Part shown: one piece after another, positions 19,697-53,585 of the stretch
Layout of the letters: every line of letters begins with the position of its first letter
How positions within the stretch are numbered: the first letter of the stretch is position 1
Assembly (NCBI GenBank): GCA_002441245.1
Contig: DJVP01000012.1
Location: 116,547 to 180,546 of the forward strand
DNA from: Candidatus Omnitrophica bacterium UBA6253
GTDB lineage: Bacteria > Omnitrophota > Gorgyraeia > Gygaellales > Profunditerraquicolaceae
DNA: 64,000 bases
Direction: 5' to 3'
The notes under the pieces: generated by a model
Told to the model about the DNA's origin: nothing
The model's database searches: none
What the model saw: the letters and a program-made list of their open reading frames with translations, nothing else
Position numbers and translations under genes: made by a program

Positions 19697-20575
19697 TTAA
19701 TGGGTCTCCTGCCAATCCGCCTCGCTTAACAAAAACTCCATCACCTTGGCCGGCATATGGTCATCTATAGGCATGCCTTCTTTTTTGGCAATCTGAGCTA
19801 AAACTAAATAAATCTTAACCTGTTTTTTAGCCTGCGGCTGAATCCCCTCCGCAATCAGTTTCTCCTGCTCCTCAATTTTATCCCGGGGAACCCCCTTCAT
19901 TGCCAAATCAATCTTTGTCTGCCGCAGCATATCCTGGGCCTGCCGGTTAACCAGGCTCTCCGGAACTTTAAATTCCAAATCTTTAAGCAGGTTCTCAATT
20001 AATTCACTTTCAATACGCTGACGCTCTTGATTTTCCTTGGTAATAAAAATCTGCCTCTCCACCGCTTTTTCAAATTCCGAAAGGTTCGGATAACCCAAAG
20101 AACGGCTAAATTTATCGTCTAAAGTTTCCGCCTTACGCGACTCCTTAACGGAATCAATCTGTTTCTTTACCTCATCGGCAGTTACCGTCACTGCCTTGAA
20201 ATTTATCTTCATTTTTCTATAATCTTTAACCGCAATCTCCGGAGTAACCTCTACAACCGCTTTAAAAGAAAGGTTGCTGCGGTCCAACTTCACATCAGTT
20301 ATCTGCGGTAATTCAATCACATCAAGCTTTTCTGCTGCAATTGCCTGATTATATACATCAGGAACCAGCTCCTTCAATACCTGTTCATGTACCGAAGCAG
20401 CGTAATGTTTCTCTAAAACATCCCGCGGAGCCTTACCCGGGCGAAAACCCGGGACCTTTGCTTCTTTGGCAACCTGAGAGAAAACTTCTTCAAATTTATT
20501 TTTAATTAACTCACCGCTAACCGCTACGCTTAATTCACATTTAGTGCTATCCAACTTCCTTACTTCAGTTTTCAT
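19697..20575 (-). CDS. tig: Trigger factor, short form lacking the PPIase domain
   Basis: GFRPGKAP ribosome-binding motif plus C-terminal chaperone-arm region. Only 292 aa. Conserved tig-clpP synteny. Confidence 0.7.
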
Positions 20576-25262: not shown

Positions 25263-26278
25263 TATTTAATCCTTCCTAAAAGTTCTCGGGAATTTGTTAC
25301 CGCTGTCCCCAGCTTGCCTACTACAATACCGGCGGCAAAATTAGCAATATACGCTGCTTCGAGTTTTGAAGCACCTGCGCAAAGAGCCAAGGTAAAACTG
25401 CTGATTACCGTGTCCCCTGCTCCGGATACATCAAAAACCTCCTGGGCTACGGTAGGAATGCGTTTATTCTTGCCTTTTTCAAAAAGCCACATTCCACCCT
25501 CGCCAAGTGTAATTAAAAGGCTCTCTAACTGCAAATACTCCAATATCTTCTCTCCTGCATTCTTAATGTCGTTATCCGTAAACAGAGTTTCCTTGTAAAT
25601 TTTAAACAAGTTTCCCCTATCATTCATTTTAAGATACCTGATGGCGTTCTGGGCTTCTTTTCGATTAGGAGTAATACAAGTGGCATGCTTATAGCAGTCG
25701 AAGTTATTCTCCTTAGGGTCAACAGTTACTATCTTTTTAAAATCTTTAGCGGTTTTAATAATATTCCTAGTCAATTCACGATCAAGCAGCCCTTTTCCAT
25801 AGTCCTCAATAACAATAGCGTCAAAATTCTTTATATTAGTGTCGAGAAATATTGTAAGCTTATCTTTTATAGACTTCGAAATATCATGTACATCTTCCCA
25901 ATCAACCCTTACCACCTGCTGGTGCCCTGCGATAATCCTTGTCTTAAGGGTTGTTTTCCTGCCCTTTTCAAAAAATACCCCCTTAGTATCAATGCCCAGT
26001 TTCTTGGCCTCGGACTGAAACATTTCTGTCGCCGGATCCTTGCTATCGCCCAATATCCCGCACAGACTTACCCTTGCGCCTAAGGCACTGATATTATTGG
26101 CAACATTAGCCGCGCCTCCTGGAACATAATTTCTTCTGTTTGCGTAAACCACGGGAACAGGAGCTTCAGGAGAAATCCTCTCGACATTACCCCAGATATA
26201 CTGGTCAAGAATCAGGTCGCCTACGACCAATACCCTTGCTTTATTAAGTTTCCCGACTACTTTTCTTAAGTTCTTCAT
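25262..26278 (-). CDS. hldE: D-beta-D-heptose 7-phosphate kinase (HldE/RfaE domain I only)
   Basis: PfkB ribokinase fold with VLVVGDLILDQY...PGGAANVA and C-terminal GAGDT motifs. No adenylyltransferase domain fused. Confidence 0.75.
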   Translation of the reverse strand: MKNLRKVVGKLNKARVLVVGDLILDQYIWGNVERISPEAPVPVVYANRRNYVPGGAANVANNISALGARVSLCGILGDSKDPATEMFQSEAKKLGIDTKGVFFEKGRKTTLKTRIIAGHQQVVRVDWEDVHDISKSIKDKLTIFLDTNIKNFDAIVIEDYGKGLLDRELTRNIIKTAKDFKKIVTVDPKENNFDCYKHATCITPNRKEAQNAIRYLKMNDRGNLFKIYKETLFTDNDIKNAGEKILEYLQLESLLITLGEGGMWLFEKGKNKRIPTVAQEVFDVSGAGDTVISSFTLALCAGASKLEAAYIANFAAGIVVGKLGTAVTNSRELLGRIK

Positions 26279-27207
26279 AGCTTTTCAATTACCGCCTGCG
26301 CTAAAAGCGGAAGCATTATTTCATGGTGGCCGATAATATAATACCCCTGCCCGCCTGAATTCGTCGGACGAATCACCACATTCTGCGCCGGACGGTACTG
26401 ATAAATCATATCAAAGTTAGCGGTAGTAAAATCCTTGACCTTATGCCCAAGGTTTCGCGCAAGATTAAGCGCCTTTAAAAATACCTCAGGCAAAAGCACA
26501 GCTGAGCCAAAATTTAAAACTACACCGCCCTGATTCAATAAGCAGATATTTTTAACAAGGGTATGGAAATCACGTAATGAGCCTTCGGCGGTCAACCCGG
26601 CATTGAACGAAGGATGCTGATGTATTATATCCGTACCGATGCCTACAAAAACGCATACCGGTACATTATATTTATGGGCATTATAAAGCAGGCTTAAATT
26701 TTTATTCGGTAATTTCTCATCGGAAATCATTTTACCCACCGCGTTTCCTAAACCTAAGCCCTCGCCCACTCCGTCCTTAACTGCCCGATTAATAAAATCC
26801 GCAGTTTCCTTGCCCATGCCGAAACTGCCATTTTTAAGGTTTTCGGCAACATCCTCGGAGGTCTTGCCCTGGAAAGCAATCTCAAAATCATGAATAATCC
26901 CGGCGCCATTAAGGCAAACACAACTAATTACTTTTTTCTTAATCAGTTCAATTAATATTGGATTAAGCCCGCATTTTATTACATGCGCGCCTGCCATAAA
27001 AATTACCGCTTTTTTCTTCCTGCTGGCCAAGGCTATATGCGAAGAAACCGCGCGTAAATCTTTAACCTTTAAAATATCCGGCAAAGAGCTCAGGAAGCTG
27101 TTAAAACTTTTAAGCTTAGCCGGAGCAAGCGCAAAATCCCCTTTACCTACCTTGCTAAAACGGGTTTTAATTGAGTATCTTTTTACTTTTTTCCAGTTAA
27201 TCGTCAT
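26275..27207 (-). CDS. Deoxyhypusine synthase-like protein (candidate homospermidine synthase-type)
   Basis: By-eye similarity to DHS blocks (NGAGIIHDFEI vs TAGGVEEDLIK, LLNQGGVV vs ILGGGVV, PLL near the C-terminus). Not confirmed. Confidence 0.4.
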   Translation of the reverse strand: MTINWKKVKRYSIKTRFSKVGKGDFALAPAKLKSFNSFLSSLPDILKVKDLRAVSSHIALASRKKKAVIFMAGAHVIKCGLNPILIELIKKKVISCVCLNGAGIIHDFEIAFQGKTSEDVAENLKNGSFGMGKETADFINRAVKDGVGEGLGLGNAVGKMISDEKLPNKNLSLLYNAHKYNVPVCVFVGIGTDIIHQHPSFNAGLTAEGSLRDFHTLVKNICLLNQGGVVLNFGSAVLLPEVFLKALNLARNLGHKVKDFTTANFDMIYQYRPAQNVVIRPTNSGGQGYYIIGHHEIMLPLLAQAVIEKL

Positions 27208-27375
27208 AGGAATCCTTCGCTCAGGACAATAAGCCTTTAGTGATTAGTGCGAAAAGCTTAATGATTTTATCACAATTTAAGGTTAATTCAAACAGAAATA
27301 TTTTAGCTCAAAAGGAATATCGATAGTATCTTTTATATCTAAAACCGGCATCTTTTTGCCCCTAACAACTATATA

Positions 27376-27567
27376 TCATCCTTCTTTGCCACTGCCGCAC
27401 TTATTTAATACCCACATCATAGGACACCATCCGGTAAACGCCGATTGGAATAAGTTTAAACCGACAAACGCAGTAAACCAGAGCCAATTATGATTAACGT
27501 AATGAGCCAAAAAAAGGCTGACCAGAATAAAAAAACCTGCTATGCCGCGTAATAACCTGTCTATCAT
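27376..27567 (-). CDS. Small inner-membrane protein (DUF2892/YgaP-like, GWCP motif)
   Basis: Two TM helices and a GWCPMMW motif. 16 bp downstream of the OMP gene in the same operon. Confidence 0.5.
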
Positions 27568-27582
27568 ACACGCCTCCTTTTC

Positions 27583-28869
27583 TTAAAAACTATAGCGCAG
27601 CCGCGCGTAAATATTCTTGTTCTTCCTCATCTGACCGAAATCTGTATAATCTTCCGCCCCCCAGGGAATGTTTAATCCGCTTGTAAACTTCCAGTGGTCG
27701 GTCAAATCATACTCCACAGAAAACCGCAGGTAACCGTCATTATTAGAAGGAGAATAGAAGTTAAACAAAGACACCCTTACCGTCTGGTTTTTAAAAAGTT
27801 TGGTTAGGCGCTGAGTAGTAATATGTTTACATTCATCGTAAACAACATCCTGACTGAGCAGCGAACGTTTATAGGCAGCGTAATCGAGCATCTGCTCATA
27901 ATAATACTGGAAAGCGACTTTCAAATCATTACCCAAATCCTTCTCATATCCAGCCATAAGTCTTACGGAAGAATTCTCGATAAGCCGATTATTGCCTTTA
28001 GGATCCTCGGGCGAATGCAGATAGGCGCCTTCAATATTCCCGATACCCCCCAACAACTCCCCCCTAAGGCTTGAACCGTAAACATCCTGGCGTTCGTAAT
28101 AAAGCTGCCTGGCTGCTTCATTTTTATAGCTACGGGATATATTATCAAATCCCCTGAATAAATAGATTGCCGCTTCGGTGCTGCCGAAATTACGATAGAA
28201 TCGCCCGGCATATTCAAAATTTTTTGCCTGCTGCCCAGGCTCAATCAGGTCCCGGTCAGAATCAGTGCCGGCGATACCCCCCTGAAAACTATCAAAGAAT
28301 GAAAGCCTGTCTCCCTCAGGCATACTGTTAGGCGTAAAATGCGGTATAACAATAAAATCAAAATTAAATAACTCCGGATACAGAGAAATCTTGAGCGCAT
28401 CTGAAGGTTTTTTTAAATATTCATCATCACGTCCTACATAAAAAGACACATAGTCCTTAGGAAAGACATCGTTTATAAACAGATAGTCTCCGGTACCCCA
28501 GGTAAGAACCTGGCGGCCAACTTTTACGTCGATTAATTGAGTAGGCGTAAAAGAAAGGTTTGCCTCACGCAACTCAAAATCTGTTTTCCCGCCGAAATAC
28601 TCGTCAAGCGTAAAGTCGCCCTTAAAACGGAATACCCCTTGAAAACGCGATAATATGTCTTCCCCCTCAAAGTTATACTGATTTTTTAACTGCAGGCGTT
28701 CTTCCGCCATATTGTAATCGCTGTGCTTGGTAGGATCACCCTTGCTGATTACCCCACCAAAAGCACCTTCAGCAAAACCATGCCATCCGGATAAACCAGC
28801 AAAAACTGGCTTCTGCCAGGCAAAAAGTAATAAAATAACCAAGAATATGCCGGATTTCTTGATTACCAT
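27583..28869 (-). CDS. Outer-membrane beta-barrel protein (DUF1302-like?)
   Basis: Signal peptide, alternating amphipathic strands, C-terminal ...RLRYSF aromatic terminus. Translationally coupled to the upstream LolA-like gene. Confidence 0.55.
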   Translation of the reverse strand: MVIKKSGIFLVILLLFAWQKPVFAGLSGWHGFAEGAFGGVISKGDPTKHSDYNMAEERLQLKNQYNFEGEDILSRFQGVFRFKGDFTLDEYFGGKTDFELREANLSFTPTQLIDVKVGRQVLTWGTGDYLFINDVFPKDYVSFYVGRDDEYLKKPSDALKISLYPELFNFDFIVIPHFTPNSMPEGDRLSFFDSFQGGIAGTDSDRDLIEPGQQAKNFEYAGRFYRNFGSTEAAIYLFRGFDNISRSYKNEAARQLYYERQDVYGSSLRGELLGGIGNIEGAYLHSPEDPKGNNRLIENSSVRLMAGYEKDLGNDLKVAFQYYYEQMLDYAAYKRSLLSQDVVYDECKHITTQRLTKLFKNQTVRVSLFNFYSPSNNDGYLRFSVEYDLTDHWKFTSGLNIPWGAEDYTDFGQMRKNKNIYARLRYSF

Positions 28870-28870
28870 A

Positions 28871-29659
28871 CTAACCCTTTATCCACTGCATGGGAGGATT
28901 ACGTAAATACCTCTCAGTAAATATGCTATCATTAATGCCAATGCCATAAGAAATATCCGTAAACTCCGCCGTAGTGGAAGAGCCGGAATTTAAATCCTGA
29001 GCAATCATTTTTACAATGGTAGGATACCCTTGGATCTCTTTTATTTCCGCTGCCTCCACTATACGGTAGAGTTTCCCCTCTTTGTCATAATATTCAGCCT
29101 TTAGCGGGATAAAATTACTCTTATCCACTTGTACTTGATAATAGGAAAATTCGACCTGGTCGGCATCTTTAGGCGTATTCTTGATCATATAACTATCGCC
29201 CTCGCTCGATAAAAGTTCATGGTTATCCAGGTTTACGCTGCGGCCCGAAACATCTTCATATAGAAAATTCGTCCCGGCAAAACTGGAGCGTTTATCAGAA
29301 GAGGCGACACGGCGCACAAGGTCAAGAGCCGGAAGATAAAGCCATCGGTCATCGTCTTTGCTCAGGTGCTTCCAGACAATATAGGCCATGCCCTTAACAT
29401 CGCTGGGCTTATCAAAATAAACGTAATATTTTTGATCTCCGTTATCCGATATATTAAAACGCAATATCGTCATTTGGCGCTCGCGCCTGCGGCCCTGGGA
29501 GTCGGTTATGACCATCTTTGCCTGGGAACGTCCGTCCTTATCCTGATAATACCCCATATGGCTTGCGCGGCCGGCAATATCATCGGCACTCATTTGCGCA
29601 TATACAGAACCGATGCCCATGAGAAATAAAAATAAGAATATTGAGATATTTTTTTTCAC
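28871..29659 (-). CDS. LolA-like periplasmic lipoprotein-sorting-type protein (DUF1329-like)
   Basis: Signal peptide, about 260 aa. Its coupled position after an MMPL/RND exporter matches the known exporter / LolA-like / OM barrel trio. Confidence 0.5.
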   Translation of the reverse strand: MKKNISIFLFLFLMGIGSVYAQMSADDIAGRASHMGYYQDKDGRSQAKMVITDSQGRRRERQMTILRFNISDNGDQKYYVYFDKPSDVKGMAYIVWKHLSKDDDRWLYLPALDLVRRVASSDKRSSFAGTNFLYEDVSGRSVNLDNHELLSSEGDSYMIKNTPKDADQVEFSYYQVQVDKSNFIPLKAEYYDKEGKLYRIVEAAEIKEIQGYPTIVKMIAQDLNSGSSTTAEFTDISYGIGINDSIFTERYLRNPPMQWIKG

Positions 29660-32187
29660 TTTACTCCTCCTTTATCGCTTTTAGTAAAAAAACATTGCCT
29701 TAACCGGGAAACAAAAAAACACAATGCAGATAACAGGCCTACGCTACCTACTGCTATCACTGTCGCGATATTCCAAGGCGTTGCGGTATAAGCTATAAGC
29801 ACATAAGCAACGCCTATGGCAATAACCAAAGACATCAAAATACATTGTGGGCAGGAACGTAAGAACCTGTTTGTAGGCTCATAGAAAATTACTCCCGGAT
29901 GCATGGAGACTATTGCCGGCAGAATAATCAACGTACCTACGCTGGCGAATAACATTATCGCGAACATAAATAAACCAACTGTATTATAAGGCACGAGCGG
30001 AGAAATAAAAAGCGGCAGGAATCCGATAGACACAACCAGGGCATTACGCAGTATTGCCCTGTACGGAGACAAGAACATTTCTTCAGAGGTATCTTTCCAG
30101 TTCCCCTTAACCGCGTATATGGTTTTAGCGCGCTCCACGAAATGAATGGAGAAATCAATCGCAAGCCCCAAGGTAAGAGCTGAAAGTACCGCTACCGGCA
30201 TATCATATTCCTTCCCTGTAAACCCCAGAGAACCGTATATAAAAAGCACGGTAACGATCAAAGGCACCATTGAGACAAACGCGGCAACCACCGAACGCAA
30301 AAGTATAATCATCATAAGAAGCACAATGATAAAACTACCGATAAAATTCCACAACATGCCCATGACCATTTTATCCTGCCAGACCATGTTGATATATGTA
30401 AGACCGGACCAATTATATGAAACTTGATAAGGAGGCGGATTATCTTTTATGAACTTTTCCGTATCACGCTTGACTTGCGCCATCACCTGATTATCACCGC
30501 TTTTTAGCTGTAACCAGAGATTAGCCTTTGAATAATCCGGGGTTACAAAATGAAAAAGGTCATCCGGCTTATGTGAATTTTCGAAGGACAGAAGACATTG
30601 CGCTACCGCCGCCTTGGTCACCGGGATAGTATAATAAATTTTATTTCCTCCCATAAGTTCGTAATAAACTTTCATAACTACGTCCGCCACCGAAGTAGAT
30701 TTACCCACCTGATTCTCTTTGTAAAGATAATCTTGCAGTTTTTGTATGTAAACAAGCATTGCCGGCTCTTTAAAAACCTCCGCATCCTTATCCTTGGCTG
30801 CGAAAATAAAATACACGCTGTAGGTTCCGCCGAAATGTTTATTCAAAACAGTATCCGCCTGGCGGATGGGATGGCGATTAGCAAACCACTTTGTGGGGTT
30901 ATCGTTAATACGTATCCTGGTTATACCGTAGATAGACAACGCAACAACAACAAGAGTTGCCATCAAAAATACCGGCCAGCGCCGTACCGTCAGGCGGCCC
31001 AAAATCACCAGAAGTTTGGAAAAACCAGTTTCCTTTAATTCTTCTTGAGTGAGGCCAAAACCTTTAAGCTTATCCTCCTTTAACAACGCCACATAAGCGG
31101 GGATAAAAAGAACCGTAGTAAACCAAGCTATGCCCACACCCACAGCTACAAAAATACCGAATATTTGAATAGGCGGTATAGGAGCAAAAGACAACGAAAA
31201 GAAACCGGCTATAGTAGTAATAGAAGTAAACAGGTTCGGGATAAAGAGTGTCTTTAAAACATGGGCCACCGTCTTATTCTTATCATGAGTCTTTTTATAT
31301 TCTTCGAAGAAATCGCTTAAAATATGAATGGAATCCAATACGCAAATGGGCAGCAAAAATATCGGGATCATTGAACTCATTATATGTATAGGAAACCCCA
31401 AACCAACCATCAGCCCCATGGTCAATAGAACCACATCTACTGCCATTAAAATAGGTATTAATACTAAAACAATATTCCTGAAAAACCAGAACATAAGCAG
31501 AAAAATCACCAGGATAGCTAATGGGGCACAAATCCCCATCTGAACAAACATCTCTTTACCGAAAGCATCTTCCGCAAGAGGCAACCCGGCAAGATAATAC
31601 TGTTCCTGCCCTTGATGAGATTTCAGGATATCCTGTATGGCACGGGAGATTTTATAACTAAGGTTTTTCTCTTTTATGGGGACATAAATGCACAACGCCC
31701 TGGCATCCTGGGAAATAAGAGTATTATAGAACAACGGGTTGGCCAGCGCCCTTATCTTGATGCGCAAGGCATCTTCAGGCGTATAAGGCGGTTTATCCAT
31801 TAACCACCTAAAAACCACCTCTCCGGGGCCACCCTGGCGTATATCATCTTTGTTGCTTAAGCTCATCAATTCATATGTTACAACCCCGTCAATTTTCTTA
31901 ATCGCCTGCGTAATATCATAAACCTTTTCCAGTGTCCCGGGGTTAAAAACACCATCCTTATCTTGTTCATTCACTACACCCAACACGATATAATCATTGA
32001 GCGAAAATTCCTTTTTTACCTCTTTATGGAATAACCTGACAAATTCCTTCTCGGAAAGCATATTCTCCGGATCAGTGTCTATCTTTATTTTTAAAAACTG
32101 CAGGCATGAAGCAATGGTAAGGAATATGGTTATACCGAATATGACCCTGGGCCTGCGCAAGGCGAAATTAACCATCTTTTCAAACAT
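29656..32187 (-). CDS. MMPL/RND-superfamily exporter (HpnN/MmpL-like, 12 TM with two periplasmic domains)
   Basis: 843 aa, two 6-TM bundles each followed by a large soluble loop. Gly-rich TM4/TM10-like segments typical of RND/MMPL. Confidence 0.7.
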   Translation of the reverse strand: MFEKMVNFALRRPRVIFGITIFLTIASCLQFLKIKIDTDPENMLSEKEFVRLFHKEVKKEFSLNDYIVLGVVNEQDKDGVFNPGTLEKVYDITQAIKKIDGVVTYELMSLSNKDDIRQGGPGEVVFRWLMDKPPYTPEDALRIKIRALANPLFYNTLISQDARALCIYVPIKEKNLSYKISRAIQDILKSHQGQEQYYLAGLPLAEDAFGKEMFVQMGICAPLAILVIFLLMFWFFRNIVLVLIPILMAVDVVLLTMGLMVGLGFPIHIMSSMIPIFLLPICVLDSIHILSDFFEEYKKTHDKNKTVAHVLKTLFIPNLFTSITTIAGFFSLSFAPIPPIQIFGIFVAVGVGIAWFTTVLFIPAYVALLKEDKLKGFGLTQEELKETGFSKLLVILGRLTVRRWPVFLMATLVVVALSIYGITRIRINDNPTKWFANRHPIRQADTVLNKHFGGTYSVYFIFAAKDKDAEVFKEPAMLVYIQKLQDYLYKENQVGKSTSVADVVMKVYYELMGGNKIYYTIPVTKAAVAQCLLSFENSHKPDDLFHFVTPDYSKANLWLQLKSGDNQVMAQVKRDTEKFIKDNPPPYQVSYNWSGLTYINMVWQDKMVMGMLWNFIGSFIIVLLMMIILLRSVVAAFVSMVPLIVTVLFIYGSLGFTGKEYDMPVAVLSALTLGLAIDFSIHFVERAKTIYAVKGNWKDTSEEMFLSPYRAILRNALVVSIGFLPLFISPLVPYNTVGLFMFAIMLFASVGTLIILPAIVSMHPGVIFYEPTNRFLRSCPQCILMSLVIAIGVAYVLIAYTATPWNIATVIAVGSVGLLSALCFFVSRLRQCFFTKSDKGGVK

Positions 32188-32189
32188 CT

Positions 32190-32465
32190 TTAACCCCTCC
32201 CTTTATATAAAGCCCCTAATAAAAACCTGACCCTTTTATCCAGGATGCGGTAGCAGGATTTTGTCCCTTCTTTACGGATTCCAAGTATACCGCGTGACTT
32301 TAAGATACCCAGATGCTGGGAAATCGTTGACTGCGGAAGACCGAGTGCCTTGACCATCATCTGGACATTACATTCATTTTTCGTTAACAGCCCTTTCACG
32401 ATCTTAAGGCGTACCGGATGCCCCAGGGCCTTCAAAAAATCGCTCTCCTCATTATAATTCAACAT
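32190..32465 (-). CDS. ArsR/SmtB-family transcriptional repressor
   Basis: 91 aa winged helix with LGHPVRLKIV...STISQHLGILK. Perfect GGAGG RBS 5 nt upstream. Stop overlaps the exporter start. Confidence 0.8.
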   Translation of the reverse strand: MLNYNEESDFLKALGHPVRLKIVKGLLTKNECNVQMMVKALGLPQSTISQHLGILKSRGILGIRKEGTKSCYRILDKRVRFLLGALYKGRG

Positions 32466-32484
32466 GCATCCTCCTTAAACTATT

Positions 32485-32532
32485 ATTTATCTATTAATCG
32501 TGATAATACGATAAATAGATAAATTTGTCAAG
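32485..32532 (-). promoter_or_regulatory. Sigma70-like promoter (TTGACA-17-TATTAT on the minus strand) overlapped by a 40-bp imperfect palindrome, the likely ArsR operator
   Basis: Minus-strand TTGACA is the complement of 32527-32532 and TATTAT of 32503-32508. Inverted repeat ATTTATCTATT-ATCGT...ACGAT-AAATAGATAAAT spans 32485-32524. Confidence 0.6.
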
Positions 32533-32565
32533 CAAATTTTTTATTGATTGCTGGGCAATATTAAA

Positions 32566-34587
32566 CTAACCGCCTTTGAGTATTGATTCAGCTACAGAAA
32601 GCACATCCTCGATACTGATTGCCTTAAGACAGGCAAATTCTTTTTCACAATTATGCGCCAGGCATTGGATACAGCCTACGTCTTTATGCAGATATTTATC
32701 CCTTTTTCCTAAAGGGCCCCAGCGCCGCGGGCTAAGCCCGGGTTGATTGCGGCCAAAGATGGAAATTACGGGTATTCCTAAGCTTGAGGCGATATGCACC
32801 GGACCAGAATCATTAGAGATAAACAAAGAACACCTTTTAAGGATGCTGGCAAGATGACTCAGCGAAGTCTTGCCGGACAGATTTAACGCCTTATCTCCTA
32901 ATTTTTGAGCTACCATATTTGCCAATGGAATATCCCTGGCCCCGGCTACAATCAGAATCTTAAAATTATGCCGTTTGGCTAAAATTTCGGCAACCTGAGC
33001 GAACCTATTTATCGGCCAAATCTTTGAAGGACAACTTGCCCCAGGGTTAATCGCTAATAATTTATCTGCTTCTTCGATGCCATTGCCAGCAAACAAGTCA
33101 CTAACCCATTGCTCTGATTCCGGCTTTATGGGCATGAATAAATCCCGGGCATTGCCGCTTATACCTAAATCGCTAAGTAAATCCAGGTTATATTCCGCTT
33201 CATGCCTCAAGCCTTCTTGCTTTTTATGGGGTTTCTTGAGATTATTCAAGAAACCGAATTTACGGTTATACCCCAGGCGGCAAGGAATGCCAGCCAGGAA
33301 AATTATCAGATGCATACGATTGGTAGGATGCAGGATTATTGCCAAATCAAATCTTTTCTTTTTTAGCCTGCCGGCAAATCTTAGCGAACGAATCCAGCTT
33401 CTATGCTTAATCTCTTTATCATAAATTATAGTTTCATCCAGATATGGATTTGCCTCCACAATATCCCTGGCATAAGGAGCAACCATCATAGAAATATAAG
33501 CCTGTGGGTACTTTTGCCTTAAGGCCTTAATTACCGGAGTAGACAAAAGCACATCTCCTATACGGTCAGTACGCACGATTAAAATGCGCCGGTAAATCTT
33601 TTCTTTGGCATCAGGGGTATTTTCTTTATCTTTGCCTTTAAGTAAATAGTTTACCTGCTTAAATACATCATCAACCTTCAGACAAGACAAGCATTCAAGG
33701 CTAGCAAAACGGCAGGAGGCCTTTTCGCACGGCCGGCAAAATATATCTTTTTTAACAATTATTCTCTTCTGCGACCACGGCCCGTATTTATTTTCATCCG
33801 TAGGGCCGAATATTGAAACAACCGGAATATCCAGGTAACTAGCCAAATGCATTGCCGCGCTATCGTTGGTGATTAAAAGCCTGGCTTTTCTTAGTAAAGC
33901 TGCCAATTGATTAATTGAGGTTTTGGCGCAAAGATTAATGATTCTTTCCGGACAGGACTGGTGGACAAATGAACATACGGGTTCGTCGGTTTTATCCCCT
34001 ACCAAAACTACATCCCAGCCTTCTTTAATAAGTAGGCTGCATAGATGGCTGAAATTCTCTTTATCCCAACGCTTAATCTGACTCCTTGCTCCGGGAGCAA
34101 CTACTACTATTTTAGCGCTGTCTTTTATGTTTTGTCCTTTTAAAATATCCTCGATATATTTTACATCTTCGGCCGCGATAACCAGTGATTGCTGTTTCTT
34201 GCTCCTGAAAGGATACCCGGCAAAGCAGGCCCAAAATAAATGCCTGTCCTTCATATGTTTAAACTTTCCCGGTATAAAACGTAATGGGGAACTTCTTTTT
34301 TTAGCAGGCAGGAAAGCCCCGAACAAGCTATTGCGTAAGTCAACAATTATATCGAATTTCTCTTTGGACAGAAAAAGAAATAATTTTATCTTATCTATTA
34401 ACTTGGCATGTTTATTAAAAACAATTACATTTTCTATCGCCTGGTTGCTAATGAATATCTCTTTGGGCCTCTCAGGAACCAGGCAACTGATCTTGGCATT
34501 AGGGTATTCATTGCACAATGCGTCTAAAACCGGCAAGGTTAAAATGCAATCGCCTATATTGCTTAAAGTAATAAAAAGTATCTTCAT
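32566..34587 (-). CDS. Tandem-fused glycosyltransferase family 9 (two heptosyltransferase-like domains)
   Basis: Two repeats of the GT9 N-terminal signature (ILFITLSNIGDCILTLPVLDAL and RILIVRTDRIGDVLLSTPVIKAL), each with a C-terminal sugar-nucleotide domain. 673 aa. Confidence 0.75.
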   Translation of the reverse strand: MKILFITLSNIGDCILTLPVLDALCNEYPNAKISCLVPERPKEIFISNQAIENVIVFNKHAKLIDKIKLFLFLSKEKFDIIVDLRNSLFGAFLPAKKRSSPLRFIPGKFKHMKDRHLFWACFAGYPFRSKKQQSLVIAAEDVKYIEDILKGQNIKDSAKIVVVAPGARSQIKRWDKENFSHLCSLLIKEGWDVVLVGDKTDEPVCSFVHQSCPERIINLCAKTSINQLAALLRKARLLITNDSAAMHLASYLDIPVVSIFGPTDENKYGPWSQKRIIVKKDIFCRPCEKASCRFASLECLSCLKVDDVFKQVNYLLKGKDKENTPDAKEKIYRRILIVRTDRIGDVLLSTPVIKALRQKYPQAYISMMVAPYARDIVEANPYLDETIIYDKEIKHRSWIRSLRFAGRLKKKRFDLAIILHPTNRMHLIIFLAGIPCRLGYNRKFGFLNNLKKPHKKQEGLRHEAEYNLDLLSDLGISGNARDLFMPIKPESEQWVSDLFAGNGIEEADKLLAINPGASCPSKIWPINRFAQVAEILAKRHNFKILIVAGARDIPLANMVAQKLGDKALNLSGKTSLSHLASILKRCSLFISNDSGPVHIASSLGIPVISIFGRNQPGLSPRRWGPLGKRDKYLHKDVGCIQCLAHNCEKEFACLKAISIEDVLSVAESILKGG

Positions 34588-35618
34588 AATTTCCTAACTT
34601 TTCTGGCCTCTGTCAAGACATCATCAGGAGTAACCGCTTTCATACAACGGTTATCCTGGCAATTAACTCTATAGCAAGGAATCGCGCAACCAACATCTTT
34701 CTGCAAGATAACCACATTAGTATCCGGATAAGGGCCGGTTATTTCTCTGGCCGTCGGTCCAAAAATCCCTATTATCTTCTTAGCCCCAACGGCATTAGCT
34801 ATATGCATTGGCCCGGTATCCGCGGTAACAAAAAGGCTTGCCCGCTTAGCTAGGGCGGCCAAATGCTTTATATTAAAAACCCCGCAGCCAATCAAGGGCT
34901 TCTCTTTCATTTTTTCTTTTATCTGATTAGCCAGCGGCAGGTCAGATATACTACCGGTTATAATTACCCTTGCCTTTACTTCATCGATCAAACTATCAGC
35001 TAGCTTAGCCCAGTAATCCTTCGGCCAACGTTTAGGCATCCAATTTCCTCCGGGATTAAGCGCAACTAAAAAATCATCCTTACCCACGCCATTTCTTTTC
35101 AGGAAATCATATACATATTCCTCTTCTTCAGGAGTAAAAATAAAATCCAAGTACCTGTCTTCCACGCGTAAACCCGCTTTTTCAACAACATTCAGATAAA
35201 AATCTATACGGTGCAAAGAATCCCTTTTCGGCATAGAGATCTTTTGAGTCAGCAAGAAAGAACGTTTTTTAGTATTATGGCCTATCCTCTGCTGTATCCC
35301 GGCCAACCGACAAATTAACGCGCGGCTAAATGAACGATGCAACAGGAACGCAGTATCAAATTTCTTGCTTTTAAGCAGGCTGATAAAATTTAATTTTGCC
35401 AGCATACCCTTATGCCTGTCCTTTTCATCAAAAATAATTACTTCATCTAAATACGGATTTCCTTTTAATATCGGATAACACCGACTGGGGATTGCACAGG
35501 CAATATAGCTATCGGGATAATTCCTGCGTACATTCCTGATAGTGGCCGTAGAAAACAAAACATCCCCCAGCCAATTTACATTAAAGATAAGGATACGTTT
35601 TGGCTTAAGTTTACTCAT
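34584..35618 (-). CDS. Glycosyltransferase family 9 (ADP-heptose:LPS heptosyltransferase, WaaF/WaaC-like)
   Basis: RILIFNVNWLGDVLFSTATIRNV signature, 344 aa. Confidence 0.8.
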   Translation of the reverse strand: MSKLKPKRILIFNVNWLGDVLFSTATIRNVRRNYPDSYIACAIPSRCYPILKGNPYLDEVIIFDEKDRHKGMLAKLNFISLLKSKKFDTAFLLHRSFSRALICRLAGIQQRIGHNTKKRSFLLTQKISMPKRDSLHRIDFYLNVVEKAGLRVEDRYLDFIFTPEEEEYVYDFLKRNGVGKDDFLVALNPGGNWMPKRWPKDYWAKLADSLIDEVKARVIITGSISDLPLANQIKEKMKEKPLIGCGVFNIKHLAALAKRASLFVTADTGPMHIANAVGAKKIIGIFGPTAREITGPYPDTNVVILQKDVGCAIPCYRVNCQDNRCMKAVTPDDVLTEARKVRKL

Positions 35619-36734
35619 TTACGCTGGCTCTCCCGGCCGGATTCTTTTCTCTAAACATTCTTTATAAACCTTTTCTGTCGCATCAACCATTTTCTCTTTA
35701 GAAAAATTATCCATAATGAATTTACGGGCGCTAGTTGCCAAATTATCGCGCATTTGCTTATCAGTCAAAAGGCGCATAATCGCCCCCGCTAAAGATACCG
35801 GGTCAGCAGGCTCAACTAATAATCCGTTTTGCCCGTCTTTAATCAGGGTTTTTATCCCCCCCACTGCCGAACCTACAACTGCCAACCCCTGCGCCATTGC
35901 TTCCATAAGCGCTAAGCCTAAACCCTCCTGCAATGAAGGCATAACAAAGATATCCAGTGCCGCAAGCACATTTTTAGTTCCTTCAGCTTGCGGTAAGAAT
36001 AAAACACTATTTTTGATAGCTAGATCATCCGCTTCTTCAACCAGCACATCCTTCATTTTACCTTCGCCGACAACAACCAATTTCACTGAAGGAAAGTTCT
36101 TGATAATAATCTGCATGGCCTTAAAAAGATAAATATGCCCTTTCACGTCAGATAAACGGGCAACAATCCCCACTAAAGGGGCATCTTCTATGCCTAAAGA
36201 TTCCCTGAAACTTTGCCTGCCTGAAAAATCACCGAAACTTTGCAGATCTATACCGTTATTTATTACTTTAATTTTGTTTTCATCCAGATTAAAATCAAGA
36301 ATCAGATGTTCCTTTACCTGCTGGCTTATAGCAATAATAGCATTATCCCAACAAGGAAAAAACAAGCGGGATAGCTTTGGTTTAAAAAAACCATGGCAGG
36401 TAAATATATGCGGTTTACGGCAATAACGACTCAATAAACTCCCCAAAACCTGAGTAGTTCGGCTGTTTGAATGTATCAAATCAATATTAAGCCGCTTGAT
36501 TTCTTTTCTGAGCCTTAAAAAACTGATAATGATCTTCGGGCTGACCTCTTTTTTCGTGCATAAAGGAACCCGTATGTTCTTTATGCCTGCTGCCGTGAAC
36601 TTTCCTAAGAGTCCGCCTCCTCCGGAAGCCAGGTAAACACTATGGCCATTTTCTTTAAGTCCGGAGGCTAGAGTAAACAGATAGCTGGAAATTCCCCCTA
36701 CATTAAGATGGTTAGCTATAAACAATATATTCAT
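35619..36734 (-). CDS. Glycosyltransferase family 4 (GT-B, group 1)
   Basis: MNILFIANHLNVGGISSY N-terminus and C-terminal E-x7-E-like GT4 region. Confidence 0.8.
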   Translation of the reverse strand: MNILFIANHLNVGGISSYLFTLASGLKENGHSVYLASGGGGLLGKFTAAGIKNIRVPLCTKKEVSPKIIISFLRLRKEIKRLNIDLIHSNSRTTQVLGSLLSRYCRKPHIFTCHGFFKPKLSRLFFPCWDNAIIAISQQVKEHLILDFNLDENKIKVINNGIDLQSFGDFSGRQSFRESLGIEDAPLVGIVARLSDVKGHIYLFKAMQIIIKNFPSVKLVVVGEGKMKDVLVEEADDLAIKNSVLFLPQAEGTKNVLAALDIFVMPSLQEGLGLALMEAMAQGLAVVGSAVGGIKTLIKDGQNGLLVEPADPVSLAGAIMRLLTDKQMRDNLATSARKFIMDNFSKEKMVDATEKVYKECLEKRIRPGEPA

Positions 36735-38824
36735 TATAATAATTTATCTATTGCCGCAAGCACTTCCTCAGGAGTAATCTGCCTCATACAGTGCTTGGTT
36801 CGACATTTAGTTTTATAACAAGGCTGGCAATCCAGATTTTTATTAATCACAATGCAGTTCTTTCCTGGCGGAAGATGGCGGCGCGCATCAGTAGGCCCAA
36901 AGAGCGCGATAAAAGGAGTCCTTACCGCGGATGCGATATGCAAAGGCGAAGAATCTGCTGAAATAAACACATTGCATTTCTTGATCAGGGCAGCCAACTC
37001 ATTTACACTGGTTTTACCGCAGGCATTAATAATTTTGGTACCCTTAAGTGAATTTACGAGCATGTCAGCATAGACTAAATCCTGGGCAGTACCGGTAATC
37101 ACTACGCGTATATCGCGCAACCCCAAATCTTCACAAAGACGCATCAGGTATTGCTGCGGCCAAAGTTTGGTACTCCATCTCCTGGAAGCGCTAATATTGA
37201 TCCCCACTATTTTCTGAGCCTCGCTCAGCCATTGGGCGTTTAAAAGCTCATCCACGCGCTTTATATCTTCAGGAGACGGCCAAAGCTCAAGCGAATTATT
37301 CAAAAGGTCAATACCGAGCATTTTTAATATGCGAAACTGGTGCGTTACCGGGTCGATAAGCGGTTTTCCATCTTTAATGCGGTGCTGAAGCAAAAAAGAA
37401 AGCTTTTTGTTATCATAACCGTAGCAATTAACGCAGCCGCTCAGGTAAGAAAGTATATGGCTGGACCGGCTGTTCTGCAGGTCTATAACAATATCAAAAT
37501 TCTTTTTCCTTAAGACGCCTCCTATGCCCAATAACCCCTTTAGCCCCTTATCATTATTTTTCAAATCACACACCAATAGCTCATCTATATAAGGGCTTCT
37601 TAGCAATACATCTTTTGATTCCTCTCCGGTCAAAAAGCTTATCTTATAATTTGCTTGGGAAAATTTCTCCCAAACCGCCCTTAATGCAGCCGTGGAAAGG
37701 ATTATATCCCCTAGAGAGCTGAGCTTAATTATCAGAATCTTAAAATTACTCAAGGCATCACGGTAAACATCCAAGGTATTCTTAACCATCAACTCCACCG
37801 TATATTTTTCTTTAATCTTAACGTAGGCATTCTCTGCCAAATTCTGTGCTAATTGCGTATTTTCATAAATACGCAGTATAGCATCGGCCATGCTTTTATG
37901 ATCTGCTGGAGGAACTAATAGACCGTTTTTGCCATCTTCAATGATATCAATTACCCCGCCTACCTTAGTAGCTACCACCGGTACGCCGGAGGCTTGGGCC
38001 TCAACCACTACCCGGCCAAATGCCTCATGTGTTGTCGTAGCCAAAACCACCAGGTCCAGATGCGCCAGTATCCCAGGGATATCACGCTGTGTTCCTAAGA
38101 ATTCTGTGCAATGCCATAGACCAAGCCGTCGTACTAACACCTGTACTTCCTCCTTATACGCCTCCTTTGATGCCGGGGCATCCCCCACTATCCATATTTT
38201 TAACCGTGGTACAGTCCTTGAGATACGCGCCATAGCCTTAATAAAATGCAGGTGGCCTTTTAGAGGAGTGATCCTGCCGATAATCCCTACGTTAAACTCC
38301 TCTTTTCTCTTTGACTTAGGGTCAAGGTATTTAAACCTTTCCATATCCACGCTGCGCGGAACAAGCCTGATACGCTCATGAGGCACTGCAAAGTCTTCAA
38401 TCATATGCCGGGCAATCACGTTGCTTAAAACAATCACTCTCTTAGCCCAACCCATTACTAAACTAAAAAGATGCTTCTTATAGTAGCCATGACAAGTAGT
38501 TATAAATACGGCCTTGGTCCTACGGCAGGCAAAATAAGCAATCCATGCCGGCACGCGCGAACGGGCATGAACGATATCAATCTCCTCCTGTTTGATTATC
38601 CCTACTAGAATAGGGATTAATTTATATATAGAAAAAATTGATTTTTTATGTACTGCTAATGTGTAATGTTTGGCGCCGCATGCTTCAAGCTCTCCGACCA
38701 GGGCTCCGCCGGCAGAAACCACTACTACTTTATGCCCCAGGCGCACCAGATACTTGGACAAATCCAAGGTACCGGTCTCAACCCCGCCTACATTAAGTTC
38801 AGGCAATATTTGCAGTATCTTCAT
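36734..38824 (-). CDS. Fusion protein: GT4 glycosyltransferase (N-terminal) + GT9 heptosyltransferase (C-terminal)
   Basis: N-terminus ILQILPELNVGGVE (GT4), then from about residue 360 FKILIIKLSSLGDIILSTAALRAV (GT9). 696 aa. Confidence 0.75.
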   Translation of the reverse strand: MKILQILPELNVGGVETGTLDLSKYLVRLGHKVVVVSAGGALVGELEACGAKHYTLAVHKKSIFSIYKLIPILVGIIKQEEIDIVHARSRVPAWIAYFACRRTKAVFITTCHGYYKKHLFSLVMGWAKRVIVLSNVIARHMIEDFAVPHERIRLVPRSVDMERFKYLDPKSKRKEEFNVGIIGRITPLKGHLHFIKAMARISRTVPRLKIWIVGDAPASKEAYKEEVQVLVRRLGLWHCTEFLGTQRDIPGILAHLDLVVLATTTHEAFGRVVVEAQASGVPVVATKVGGVIDIIEDGKNGLLVPPADHKSMADAILRIYENTQLAQNLAENAYVKIKEKYTVELMVKNTLDVYRDALSNFKILIIKLSSLGDIILSTAALRAVWEKFSQANYKISFLTGEESKDVLLRSPYIDELLVCDLKNNDKGLKGLLGIGGVLRKKNFDIVIDLQNSRSSHILSYLSGCVNCYGYDNKKLSFLLQHRIKDGKPLIDPVTHQFRILKMLGIDLLNNSLELWPSPEDIKRVDELLNAQWLSEAQKIVGINISASRRWSTKLWPQQYLMRLCEDLGLRDIRVVITGTAQDLVYADMLVNSLKGTKIINACGKTSVNELAALIKKCNVFISADSSPLHIASAVRTPFIALFGPTDARRHLPPGKNCIVINKNLDCQPCYKTKCRTKHCMRQITPEEVLAAIDKLL

Positions 38825-53532: not shown

Positions 53533-53585
53533 TTTTTATGCAGGGACGGCTCTAAACTTTGACTTTAGAACCGTCCCCGGGATAG

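Follow-up and report, generated by a model that had tools for sequence, protein, structure and literature searches.

A σ70-type promoter and overlapping, cross-phylum conserved operator predicted at the head of an arsR-HAE3 exporter operon in Omnitrophota

How is an exporter operon controlled when it is headed by the gene of its own ArsR-type regulator, and to what signal does that regulator respond? These questions are raised by a 64 kb stretch of the genome of Candidatus Omnitrophica bacterium UBA6253 (contig DJVP01000012.1; the whole stretch is called the window below), in which five minus-strand genes, encoding an ArsR-type regulator, an HAE3/MMPL-type transporter, a LolA-like protein, an outer-membrane protein and a DUF2892 protein, would be driven by a single promoter/operator. 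A preliminary description, made from the letters alone, had placed a 40-bp palindromic operator over the promoter of arsR. The comparative sequence analysis reported here indicates that the segment 32485-32531 is very probably the promoter of this five-gene operon together with the operator of its cognate ArsR. A promoter with an overlapping autoregulatory operator is an ordinary layout of a well-known kind; what goes beyond the ordinary is the conservation of the promoter-operator module across phyla, the arrangement of two cysteines (Cys32 and Cys71) in the regulator, and the repeated coupling, under this regulator, of thioredoxin and CoA-disulfide reductase (CoADR)-rhodanese genes with resistance-nodulation-division (RND) exporters. 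The locus offers a testable regulatory module in an uncultivated phylum: it comprises a promoter, a consensus for the operator and the signature of a regulon, and its parts are movable into Escherichia coli.

The promoter and its inverted repeat

The spacer between the stop of a co-directional heptosyltransferase gene (32566) and the start of arsR (32465) is 100 nucleotides (nt) long, has a G+C content of 25%, and reads on the minus strand ...AAAAAATTTGC-TTGACA-AATTTATCTATTTATCG-TATTAT-CACGATTAATAGATAAATAATAGTTTAAGGAGGATGC-ATG. As the preliminary description had it, a -35 hexamer TTGACA (32526-32531, minus strand) is followed after 17 nt by a -10 hexamer TATTAT (32503-32508, minus strand). Together they match the σ70 consensus at 11 of 12 positions, and in a promoter scan they form the top promoter-like site across 27-35 kb. 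The heptosyltransferase gene stops 35 nt before the -35 hexamer. Given the position of the -10 element, transcription should start near 32495-32498. The ribosome binding site, originally read as GGAGG, is part of a Shine-Dalgarno sequence AAGGAGG (32470-32476, minus strand), which lies 4 nt before the ATG at 32465.

Four hexamer matches of at least 11/12 are observed in the window, versus 1.75 +/- 1.2 expected from Markov-1 simulations; the remaining three, each 11/12, are found at 20196 (plus), 45212 (plus) and 55444 (minus). The probability of such a match within this particular A+T-rich spacer and on the correct strand is about 1e-3. Because the hexamers alone are unremarkable genome-wide, the promoter call rests on their position and on their conservation, which is described below.

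The repeat finder returned an imperfect palindrome of 40 bp at 32485-32524 (no strand; ATTTATCTATTAATCGTGATAATACGATAAATAGATAAAT on the plus strand), made up of 17-nt arms (32485-32501 and 32508-32524) that are complementary at 16 of 17 positions (94%) and are separated by a 6-nt centre. This inverted repeat spans the promoter spacer, the -10 box and the predicted start, running from 2 nt past the -35 hexamer to about +12. Its position over the spacer and the -10 had been described correctly; its hyphenated rendering had not, since one A was dropped (ATT-A-ATCGT). A scan of the 64 kb for hairpin-type repeats whose 17-nt arms have no more than one mismatch returned no second case. The runner-up, at 53543-53577, has 14-nt arms (GGGACGGCTCTAAAC...GTTTAGAACCGTCCC-like) and lies between two minus-strand open reading frames; it has a G+C-rich base, and neither strand carries a T-run.

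Conservation of the module across genomes

Homologues of the regulator, 40-82% identical to the window protein, were gathered with their loci, 80 from species-representative genomes and 28 from metagenomes. The homologous sites have a common architecture of four half-sites, H1-N3-H2-N6-H3-N3-H4, which in the window reads ATCTA-ttt-ATCGT-attatc-ACGAT-taa-TAGAT (minus strand throughout). The inner left half-site H2 (ATCGT, 32508-32512) is the best conserved; it ends in the T with which the -10 hexamer begins. The inner right half-site H3 (ACGAT, 32497-32501) overlaps the predicted transcription start. On the outer left, H1 (ATCTA, 32516-32520) is weakly conserved, with a family consensus of ATCGT/ATCAC; it is ATCGT in loci L011, L095 and L038. 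On the outer right, H4 (TAGAT, 32489-32493) lies at about +4 to +8 relative to the predicted start and has the family consensus ACGAT or nnGAT, with TAGAT in the two nearest relatives, L011 and L092. Across the homologues ACGAT is matched by H3, by H4 or by both, giving dyads with either 6-bp or 14-bp spacing. The claim of a 40-bp operator therefore stands as to position, which cross-genome conservation supports, and not as to extent: what is conserved family-wide is the four 5-bp half-sites rather than the whole 40-mer, and the 17-nt arms with their single mismatch set this genome and its closest relatives apart.

Several measures of conservation agree. In 26 of the 80 genome loci, the 200 nt before arsR contain the core dyad ATCGT-N6-ACGAT with one mismatch or none; the remainder of the same loci, taken as background, gives 14 matches over 682 kb (0.004 per 210 nt). 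When anchored on ATCGTAWTAT, 53 non-redundant upstream regions (ArsR identity 43-82%) align in register to the consensus TTGACA-N12-tAT-ATCGT-AWTATy-aCGAT-ATa-a.GAT, in which the -35, the -10 and the half-sites keep fixed distances. The -10 is TAATAT in 31 of these regions, TATTAT in 21 and TATAAT in one; a -35 that matches TTGACA in at least five of six positions is found 16-17 nt from the -10 in 38 of the 53. A position weight matrix (PWM) trained on 36 other loci, with the window site left out, ranked that site first when run over both strands of the window (128 kb), with 34.2 bits against 6.8 bits for the next best. To judge from bin and record labels, the module occurs in Omnitrophota, Elusimicrobiota, Lentisphaerae, Spirochaetes/Brevinematales and Planctomycetes; record titles add Paenibacillus, Clostridium, Desulfofundulus and Saccharibacillus. 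Within the 64 kb, searches with the 17-mer (at most three mismatches), the core dyad (at most one mismatch) and the PWM found no second operator, and hence no further member of the regulon there.

The loci that at first appear to lack the module are instructive. In L022, L038 and L100-103 the gene order is the same as in the window, yet the motif is missing from the region just before arsR. When these loci were scanned over their whole length, the full module turned up 0.45-2.8 kb upstream of arsR; in L038 it reads TTGACA-N12-ATCGT-TAT-ATCGT-AATATT-ACGAT-TAA-ACGAT, with all 20 half-site bases matching. In L022 and L038 the module heads thioredoxin, DUF302 and CoADR/rhodanese genes, which are followed by arsR-MMPL-LolA_like-OMP-DUF2892 (OMP, outer-membrane protein), and in L062 it precedes a gene for a CoADR-rhodanese-TusA-DsrE fusion, with arsR next. 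Thus, the module tracks the start of the arsR-containing operon and not arsR itself, which is the behaviour expected of an operator/promoter. In addition, the recognition helix of the regulator reads PQST(I/V)SQHL almost without exception across the family, which fits an operator common to its members. Another spacing is seen in a bioreactor clade of Firmicutes (L104, L112-L115), where TTGACA is followed by CTATCATAATATGATAG (ATCAT-N3-ATGAT) and the recognition helix is unchanged.

The classical operators of this family, those of SmtB, CzrA, CadC and ArsR, are imperfect inverted repeats of the 12-2-12 type that overlap the promoter. The window resembles these systems in that a small dimeric winged-helix repressor would be encoded by the first gene of an operon for an efflux system, and in that an A+T-rich dyad covers the -10 and the start, with a 5-6-5 core and outer repeats that could hold a second dimer. 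It differs from them in its half-sites, which are ATCGT/ACGAT here and of the TGAA/TTCA type there, and in its exporter, which is of the HAE3/MMPL type and not a metal pump. The geometry of ArsR/SmtB autorepression, which had been suggested for this site, gains support from the presence of the module upstream of homologues across phyla, and the autoregulatory dyad over its own promoter that marks the family is present at the level of sequence. The operator string found no match in a literature search. Its consensus, tATATCGTAWTATnaCGATATaanGAT, is usable for regulon prediction in Omnitrophota, Elusimicrobiota, Spirochaetota and Paenibacillus.

The regulator and its cysteines

The arsR gene (32190-32465, minus strand) encodes a protein of 91 residues that belongs to the ArsR/SmtB family: it scores 35.6 bits with PF01022 (E 8e-9; cut-off 22) and 76.3 bits with NF033788 (cut-off 55), and it matches both HTH_5 and HTH_20. 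Among the NCBIfam models, only the generic ArsR/SmtB model is passed, and the scores lie far under the cut-offs of PagR, BigR, CmtR and others. An AlphaFold2 model (pLDDT 82) has the canonical alpha1-alpha2-alpha3-alpha4-beta1-beta2-alpha5 fold, which Foldseek aligns to CadC, CzrA, NolR, HlyU and BigR with TM-scores of 0.75-0.9. By sequence, the nearest solved structures are BigR, PagR, Rv0081 and Mycobacterium smegmatis SmtB, with RexT more distant.

The preliminary description had stated that the usual metal-binding cysteines are lacking. This is borne out for the two classical sites. In an ungapped BLASTP alignment, the alpha-3 region reads NECNVQM as compared with ELCVCDL in what we take to be the sequence of E. 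coli ArsR, so that the CxC motif is absent and the region has a single Cys, one residue N-terminal of the first Cys of CVC. The metal site in alpha-5 that is typical of SmtB, CzrA and NmtR is absent as well; the helix reads DKRVRFLLGALYKGRG, without His, Glu or Cys, and contains no conserved column. However, the sensing region as a whole is not free of cysteine. All 108 homologues carry Cys32, the residue at the N-terminal end of helix alpha-3, and 71 of the 108 also carry Cys71, in strand beta-2 of the wing. Scored at positions 21/32/40/71, the patterns are.C.C in 64 homologues, CCC. in 33, CCCC in seven and.C.. in two. Homologues without Cys71 are mostly from Firmicutes, and nearly all of them have Cys21 and Cys40 instead. 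The AlphaFold2 model places residue 33 in a beta-bridge next to the wing.

The Firmicutes homologues (L041-L090, from Paenibacillus and others) have kept Cys32 and have replaced Cys71 by two cysteines that occur together, Cys21 (in RLCIV) and Cys40 (in QECL). Their genes precede those of CoADR-rhodanese-TusA-DsrE fusion proteins of 820-875 residues.

Neighbourhoods of homologues and the likely signal

The genes around the homologues offer a guide to what the regulator may sense. In a Pfam tally of 30 sampled downstream genes, Pyr_redox_2 occurs nine times, Thioredoxin and Rhodanese six times each, DsrE and OEP three times each, and TusA, C_GCAxxG_C_C and SBF twice each; the best match of the oxidoreductases is CoA-disulfide reductase. 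The arrangements include arsR-trx-MMPL (L017; trx, thioredoxin gene), arsR-CoADR/rhodanese-MMPL (L024), arsR-(Sulf_transp+glutaredoxin)-MMPL with a glutaredoxin/YeeE-like gene (L015), arsR-(C_GCAxxG_C_C)-OEP-AcrB, that is, with RND pump genes (L012, L033 and L067), arsR-trx-SBF (L048) and arsR-trx-cupin-CoADR/rhodanese (L028). In some loci without any exporter, thioredoxin or CoADR genes would be under this regulator and operator. Genes for ArsC, ArsB, P-type ATPases or CDF proteins were not seen adjoining the homologues.

Among characterized regulators, RexT of Nostoc PCC 7120 is an ArsR-type H2O2 sensor that controls the thioredoxin gene trxA2 (PMC8960804; PDB 7txm). In RexT the peroxidatic Cys (Cys41), invariant at the start of alpha-3, contacts His75 and Asn77 of wing strand beta-2, its partner is variable, and the protein is reported as confined to Cyanobacteria (PMC8960804). 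The window ArsR and its homologues share with RexT an invariant Cys at the alpha-3 start, a variable partner Cys and the link to thioredoxin, which adjoins six of the 30 sampled homologues and is also found inside MMPL operons. In contrast to RexT, with its vicinal Cys40-Cys41, the window protein has no vicinal Cys; Cys71 in beta-2 would act as the partner here, and Cys21/Cys40 would do so in Firmicutes. The similarity of the two proteins is distant (7txm, E 1.4e-6), and their register around the Cys is ambiguous.

The persulfide sensors BigR, SqrR, HlyU and YgaV belong to cluster 4 of an ArsR sequence similarity network (PMC10054925), and peroxide sensors of the RexT type to its cluster 6. 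BigR (3pqj) is the best PDB match of the window protein by sequence (E 4e-11, about 37% identity), and the two groups have in common a two-Cys, non-metal type of regulator and neighbourhoods with rhodanese/sulfurtransferase genes; moreover, the YgaP-like DUF2892 transmembrane protein of the operon recalls the ygaV-ygaP pair. Nevertheless, the alpha-2/alpha-5 Cys pair that defines BigR and SqrR is missing: in a HMMER alignment to 3pqj, BigR Cys42 aligns to Lys24 and alpha-5 is Cys-free, and the persulfide-sensor model NF040642 gives 52.6 bits versus a cut-off of 155. PagR of Bacillus anthracis has the same recognition helix, LPQSTVSQHL, but Leu and Tyr where the window ArsR has its two Cys, and its model NF052532 gives 53 bits versus a cut-off of 170. 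The clade with Cys32 and Cys71 is apparently uncharacterised; literature searches for ArsR proteins with persulfide/CoADR/rhodanese or thioredoxin/redox returned RexT, BigR/SqrR/HlyU and SoxR/sHdrR, and nothing on this clade. It likely represents a third arrangement of the sensory site among non-metal ArsR proteins, in which an alpha-3 N-terminal Cys is combined with a Cys in wing beta-2 or, in Firmicutes, with Cys21/Cys40.

Given neighbours that encode thioredoxin, CoADR/rhodanese, DsrE/TusA, glutaredoxin and C_GCAxxG_C_C proteins, a thiol-reactive or sulfane-sulfur signal is favoured. From conservation and context, we consider with moderate confidence that the inducer is a thiol-reactive oxidant or disulfide stress, or sulfane sulfur. 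A broader formulation is more tentative and may well prove wrong: that the family is an uncharacterised, multi-phylum clade of thiol-switch ArsR proteins with a universal alpha-3 N-terminal Cys, a clade-specific partner Cys and an ATCGT-N6-ACGAT operator fused to the -10, which senses sulfane sulfur or disulfide stress and is coupled in Omnitrophota to an HAE3 RND/LolA-like/beta-barrel exporter.

It is improbable, though worth weighing, that a promoter and operator of this description respond to a soft metal or metalloid (As(III), Sb(III), Cd or Cu(I), for example) that Cys32 and Cys71 bind in the manner of classical ArsR. The regulator does fall in the metalloregulator subfamily NF033788, and Cys32 adjoins the CVC-site position, but the CxC motif and a third Cys are missing. 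Similarly, two homologous loci contain SBF-type transporters that are distantly related to ACR3, but these proteins score 87-88 bits versus an ACR3 cut-off of 283, and a link to ACR3 and arsenic was rejected on this ground. The genes that do adjoin the homologues encode rhodanese, DsrE, TusA, thioredoxin and CoADR, with no arsenic or metal-pump genes seen. The two SBF genes lie at L048:1599-2636 and L089:5344-6327, and the former is followed by a gene for a DUF6858 protein.

A hydrophobic ligand, such as a lipid or the cargo of the exporter, acting on the same promoter and operator had been proposed at the outset and appears unlikely. In its favour, the exporter of the operon is of the HAE3/MMPL type and has a LolA-like partner, monoterpenes are handled by the related AmeABCD systems (PMC6394551), and pump regulators that are induced by the substrate are common. 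However, a hydrophobic pocket is not known for a 91-residue ArsR fold, the conserved residues outside the DNA-binding surface are the two Cys, and in some loci the same regulator and operator stand before thioredoxin or CoADR genes with no exporter present. The proposal is left without support, the neighbours of the homologues being thiol and sulfur genes.

A model of repression and derepression

With a thiol-reactive or sulfane-sulfur signal as the preferred reading, the following mechanism can be proposed. An ArsR dimer would most likely bind ATCGT-N6-ACGAT, assisted by the outer half-sites 3 bp further out. Bound to H2 and H3, whose centres are 11 bp, or about one helical turn, apart, the dimer would block open-complex formation. 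This spacing agrees with the way in which ArsR-family dimers engage successive major grooves (PMC10054925). Since H2 shares a base with the -10 and H3 lies on the start site, the bound repressor would exclude RNA polymerase and would hold down synthesis of both the regulator and the exporter; with arsR as the leading gene, the circuit would be autorepressing. A second dimer may dock on the outer half-sites, which is what has been proposed for the 12-2-12 operators of SmtB and CzrA. Derepression would most likely come about through chemical modification of Cys32 at the N-terminal end of alpha-3, for which Cys71 in wing beta-2 could serve in this clade as the partner, in a disulfide or polysulfide bridge. 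By analogy with RexT, BigR and SqrR, thiol-reactive oxidants or sulfane sulfur would act as the trigger.

Several points weigh against this reading. Under strict criteria, 59 of the 108 loci have no site, many of these being short contigs or diverged sites; some Firmicutes carry a different dyad, CTATCATAATATGATAG; and the outer arms of the 40-mer (ATCTA/TAGAT) are weakly conserved. The association of the motif with arsR is partly built in by ascertainment, since the loci were gathered via arsR, and the site could conceivably belong to a different factor that co-occurs with it. As to the cysteines, members from Firmicutes without Cys71 indicate that the partner is not universal, and with Cys32 one residue before the first Cys of CVC, its register relative to Cys40/41 of RexT is ambiguous. 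More generally, we infer from sequence that ArsR is the binder, and likewise its stoichiometry, the position of the start, the chemistry of the cysteines and the nature of the inducer.

It is also very unlikely that the palindrome acts as an RNA hairpin, as a terminator or insulator of heptosyltransferase read-through, or is the site of an unrelated protein. The 100-nt spacer does fold the repeat as a hairpin (minimum free energy -19.5 kcal/mol, z = -2.9), and the upstream gene is co-directional and ends close to the -35. However, the stem is weak and A+T-rich, it is not followed by a U-run, and of the two arms only the right one lies downstream of the predicted start; on these grounds the hairpin/terminator reading was rejected. 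An Rfam scan of 32150-32750 (E <= 1) gave no match. Furthermore, the homologues conserve the sequences of the half-sites and not mere complementarity, and the spacing used varies between N6 and N14, a pattern that marks a protein site linked to arsR. Finally, a chance palindrome combined with a chance hexamer match, which an A+T-rich spacer and the number of matches expected in 64 kb might invite, is negligible as an explanation and effectively refuted by the core-dyad enrichment, the in-register alignment of 53 regions across phyla and the leave-out PWM, and the window has no other repeat with 17-nt arms.

Genes of the operon and surroundings

The operon that this promoter/operator would drive is compact, with gaps or overlaps of at most 15 nt throughout the five genes. 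The gene for the HAE3/MMPL-type RND inner-membrane transporter (29656-32187, minus strand; 843 residues) begins 2 nt past the arsR stop codon; its product matches PF03176 (E 4e-30) and, with a score under the cut-off, the HAE3 model TIGR00921 (E 2e-72). It is overlapped by 4 nt by the gene for a LolA_like/TP_0789-like periplasmic protein (28871-29659, minus strand; 262 residues), which matches PF17131 (E 2e-57) and, weakly, DUF1329 (E 6e-9). Next is a gene for a putative outer-membrane protein (27583-28869, minus strand; 428 residues), whose match to DUF1302 (PF06980, E 0.0026) is under the cut-off and whose position is conserved. The final gene encodes a DUF2892/YgaP-like transmembrane protein with a GWCP motif (27376-27567, minus strand; 63 residues; PF11127, E 3e-15), and it is kept at the operon end in L011, L022, L036 and L038. 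The order arsR-MMPL-LolA_like-OMP-(DUF2892) recurs in L011, L017, L022, L024, L026, L036, L038, L065, L092, L095 and L100-103, and the full order with DUF2892 is conserved down to an ArsR identity of 48%. An annotated protein of a Candidatus Omnitrophica metagenome-assembled genome has the same sequence as the window ArsR; the annotation sources give generic names only, and the same arsR locus is present on contigs of several metagenomes.

The closest described exporter is AmeABCD of Castellaniella defragrans, which combines an HAE3 RND protein with a DUF1302 outer-membrane protein and a DUF1329/LolA-like periplasmic protein (PMC6394551). The window operon likewise encodes components of these types, an HAE3-type RND protein, a periplasmic protein of the LolA superfamily and a DUF1302-like outer-membrane protein, with the qualification that the LolA-like protein is assigned by PF17131 and only weakly by DUF1329, and that the HAE3 and DUF1302 matches are under their cut-offs. 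Unlike AmeABCD, it has no AmeC homologue, and a DUF2892 protein and an ArsR regulator are added. That exporters of this kind share operons with thioredoxin and a CoA-persulfide-reductase-like enzyme suggests, within the more tentative formulation given above, that the pump may remove a hydrophobic sulfur species, such as S8 or organic polysulfanes, or a thiol-reactive lipophile. HAE3/LolA-like envelope exporters are poorly understood, and their likely tie to thiol/sulfur stress provides a clue to the substrate. In a sister clade, at L038:2150-5261 and likewise in L022, L101 and L102, a 'lipid-type' exporter would be co-transcribed with persulfide/thiol enzymes.

Two features flank the operon. 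Upstream of it, 32566-38824 is a run of genes of the lipopolysaccharide-core type with unusual fusions, among them a 673-residue protein with two heptosyltransferase (GT9) halves and a 696-residue GT4+GT9 protein. Downstream, the 168-nt gap after the DUF2892 gene contains an extended -10-type promoter-like site, TTGAAT-16-TAAAAT with TG (27264-27291, minus strand), which lies upstream of a deoxyhypusine-synthase-like gene (26275-27207) and probably marks the next transcription unit.

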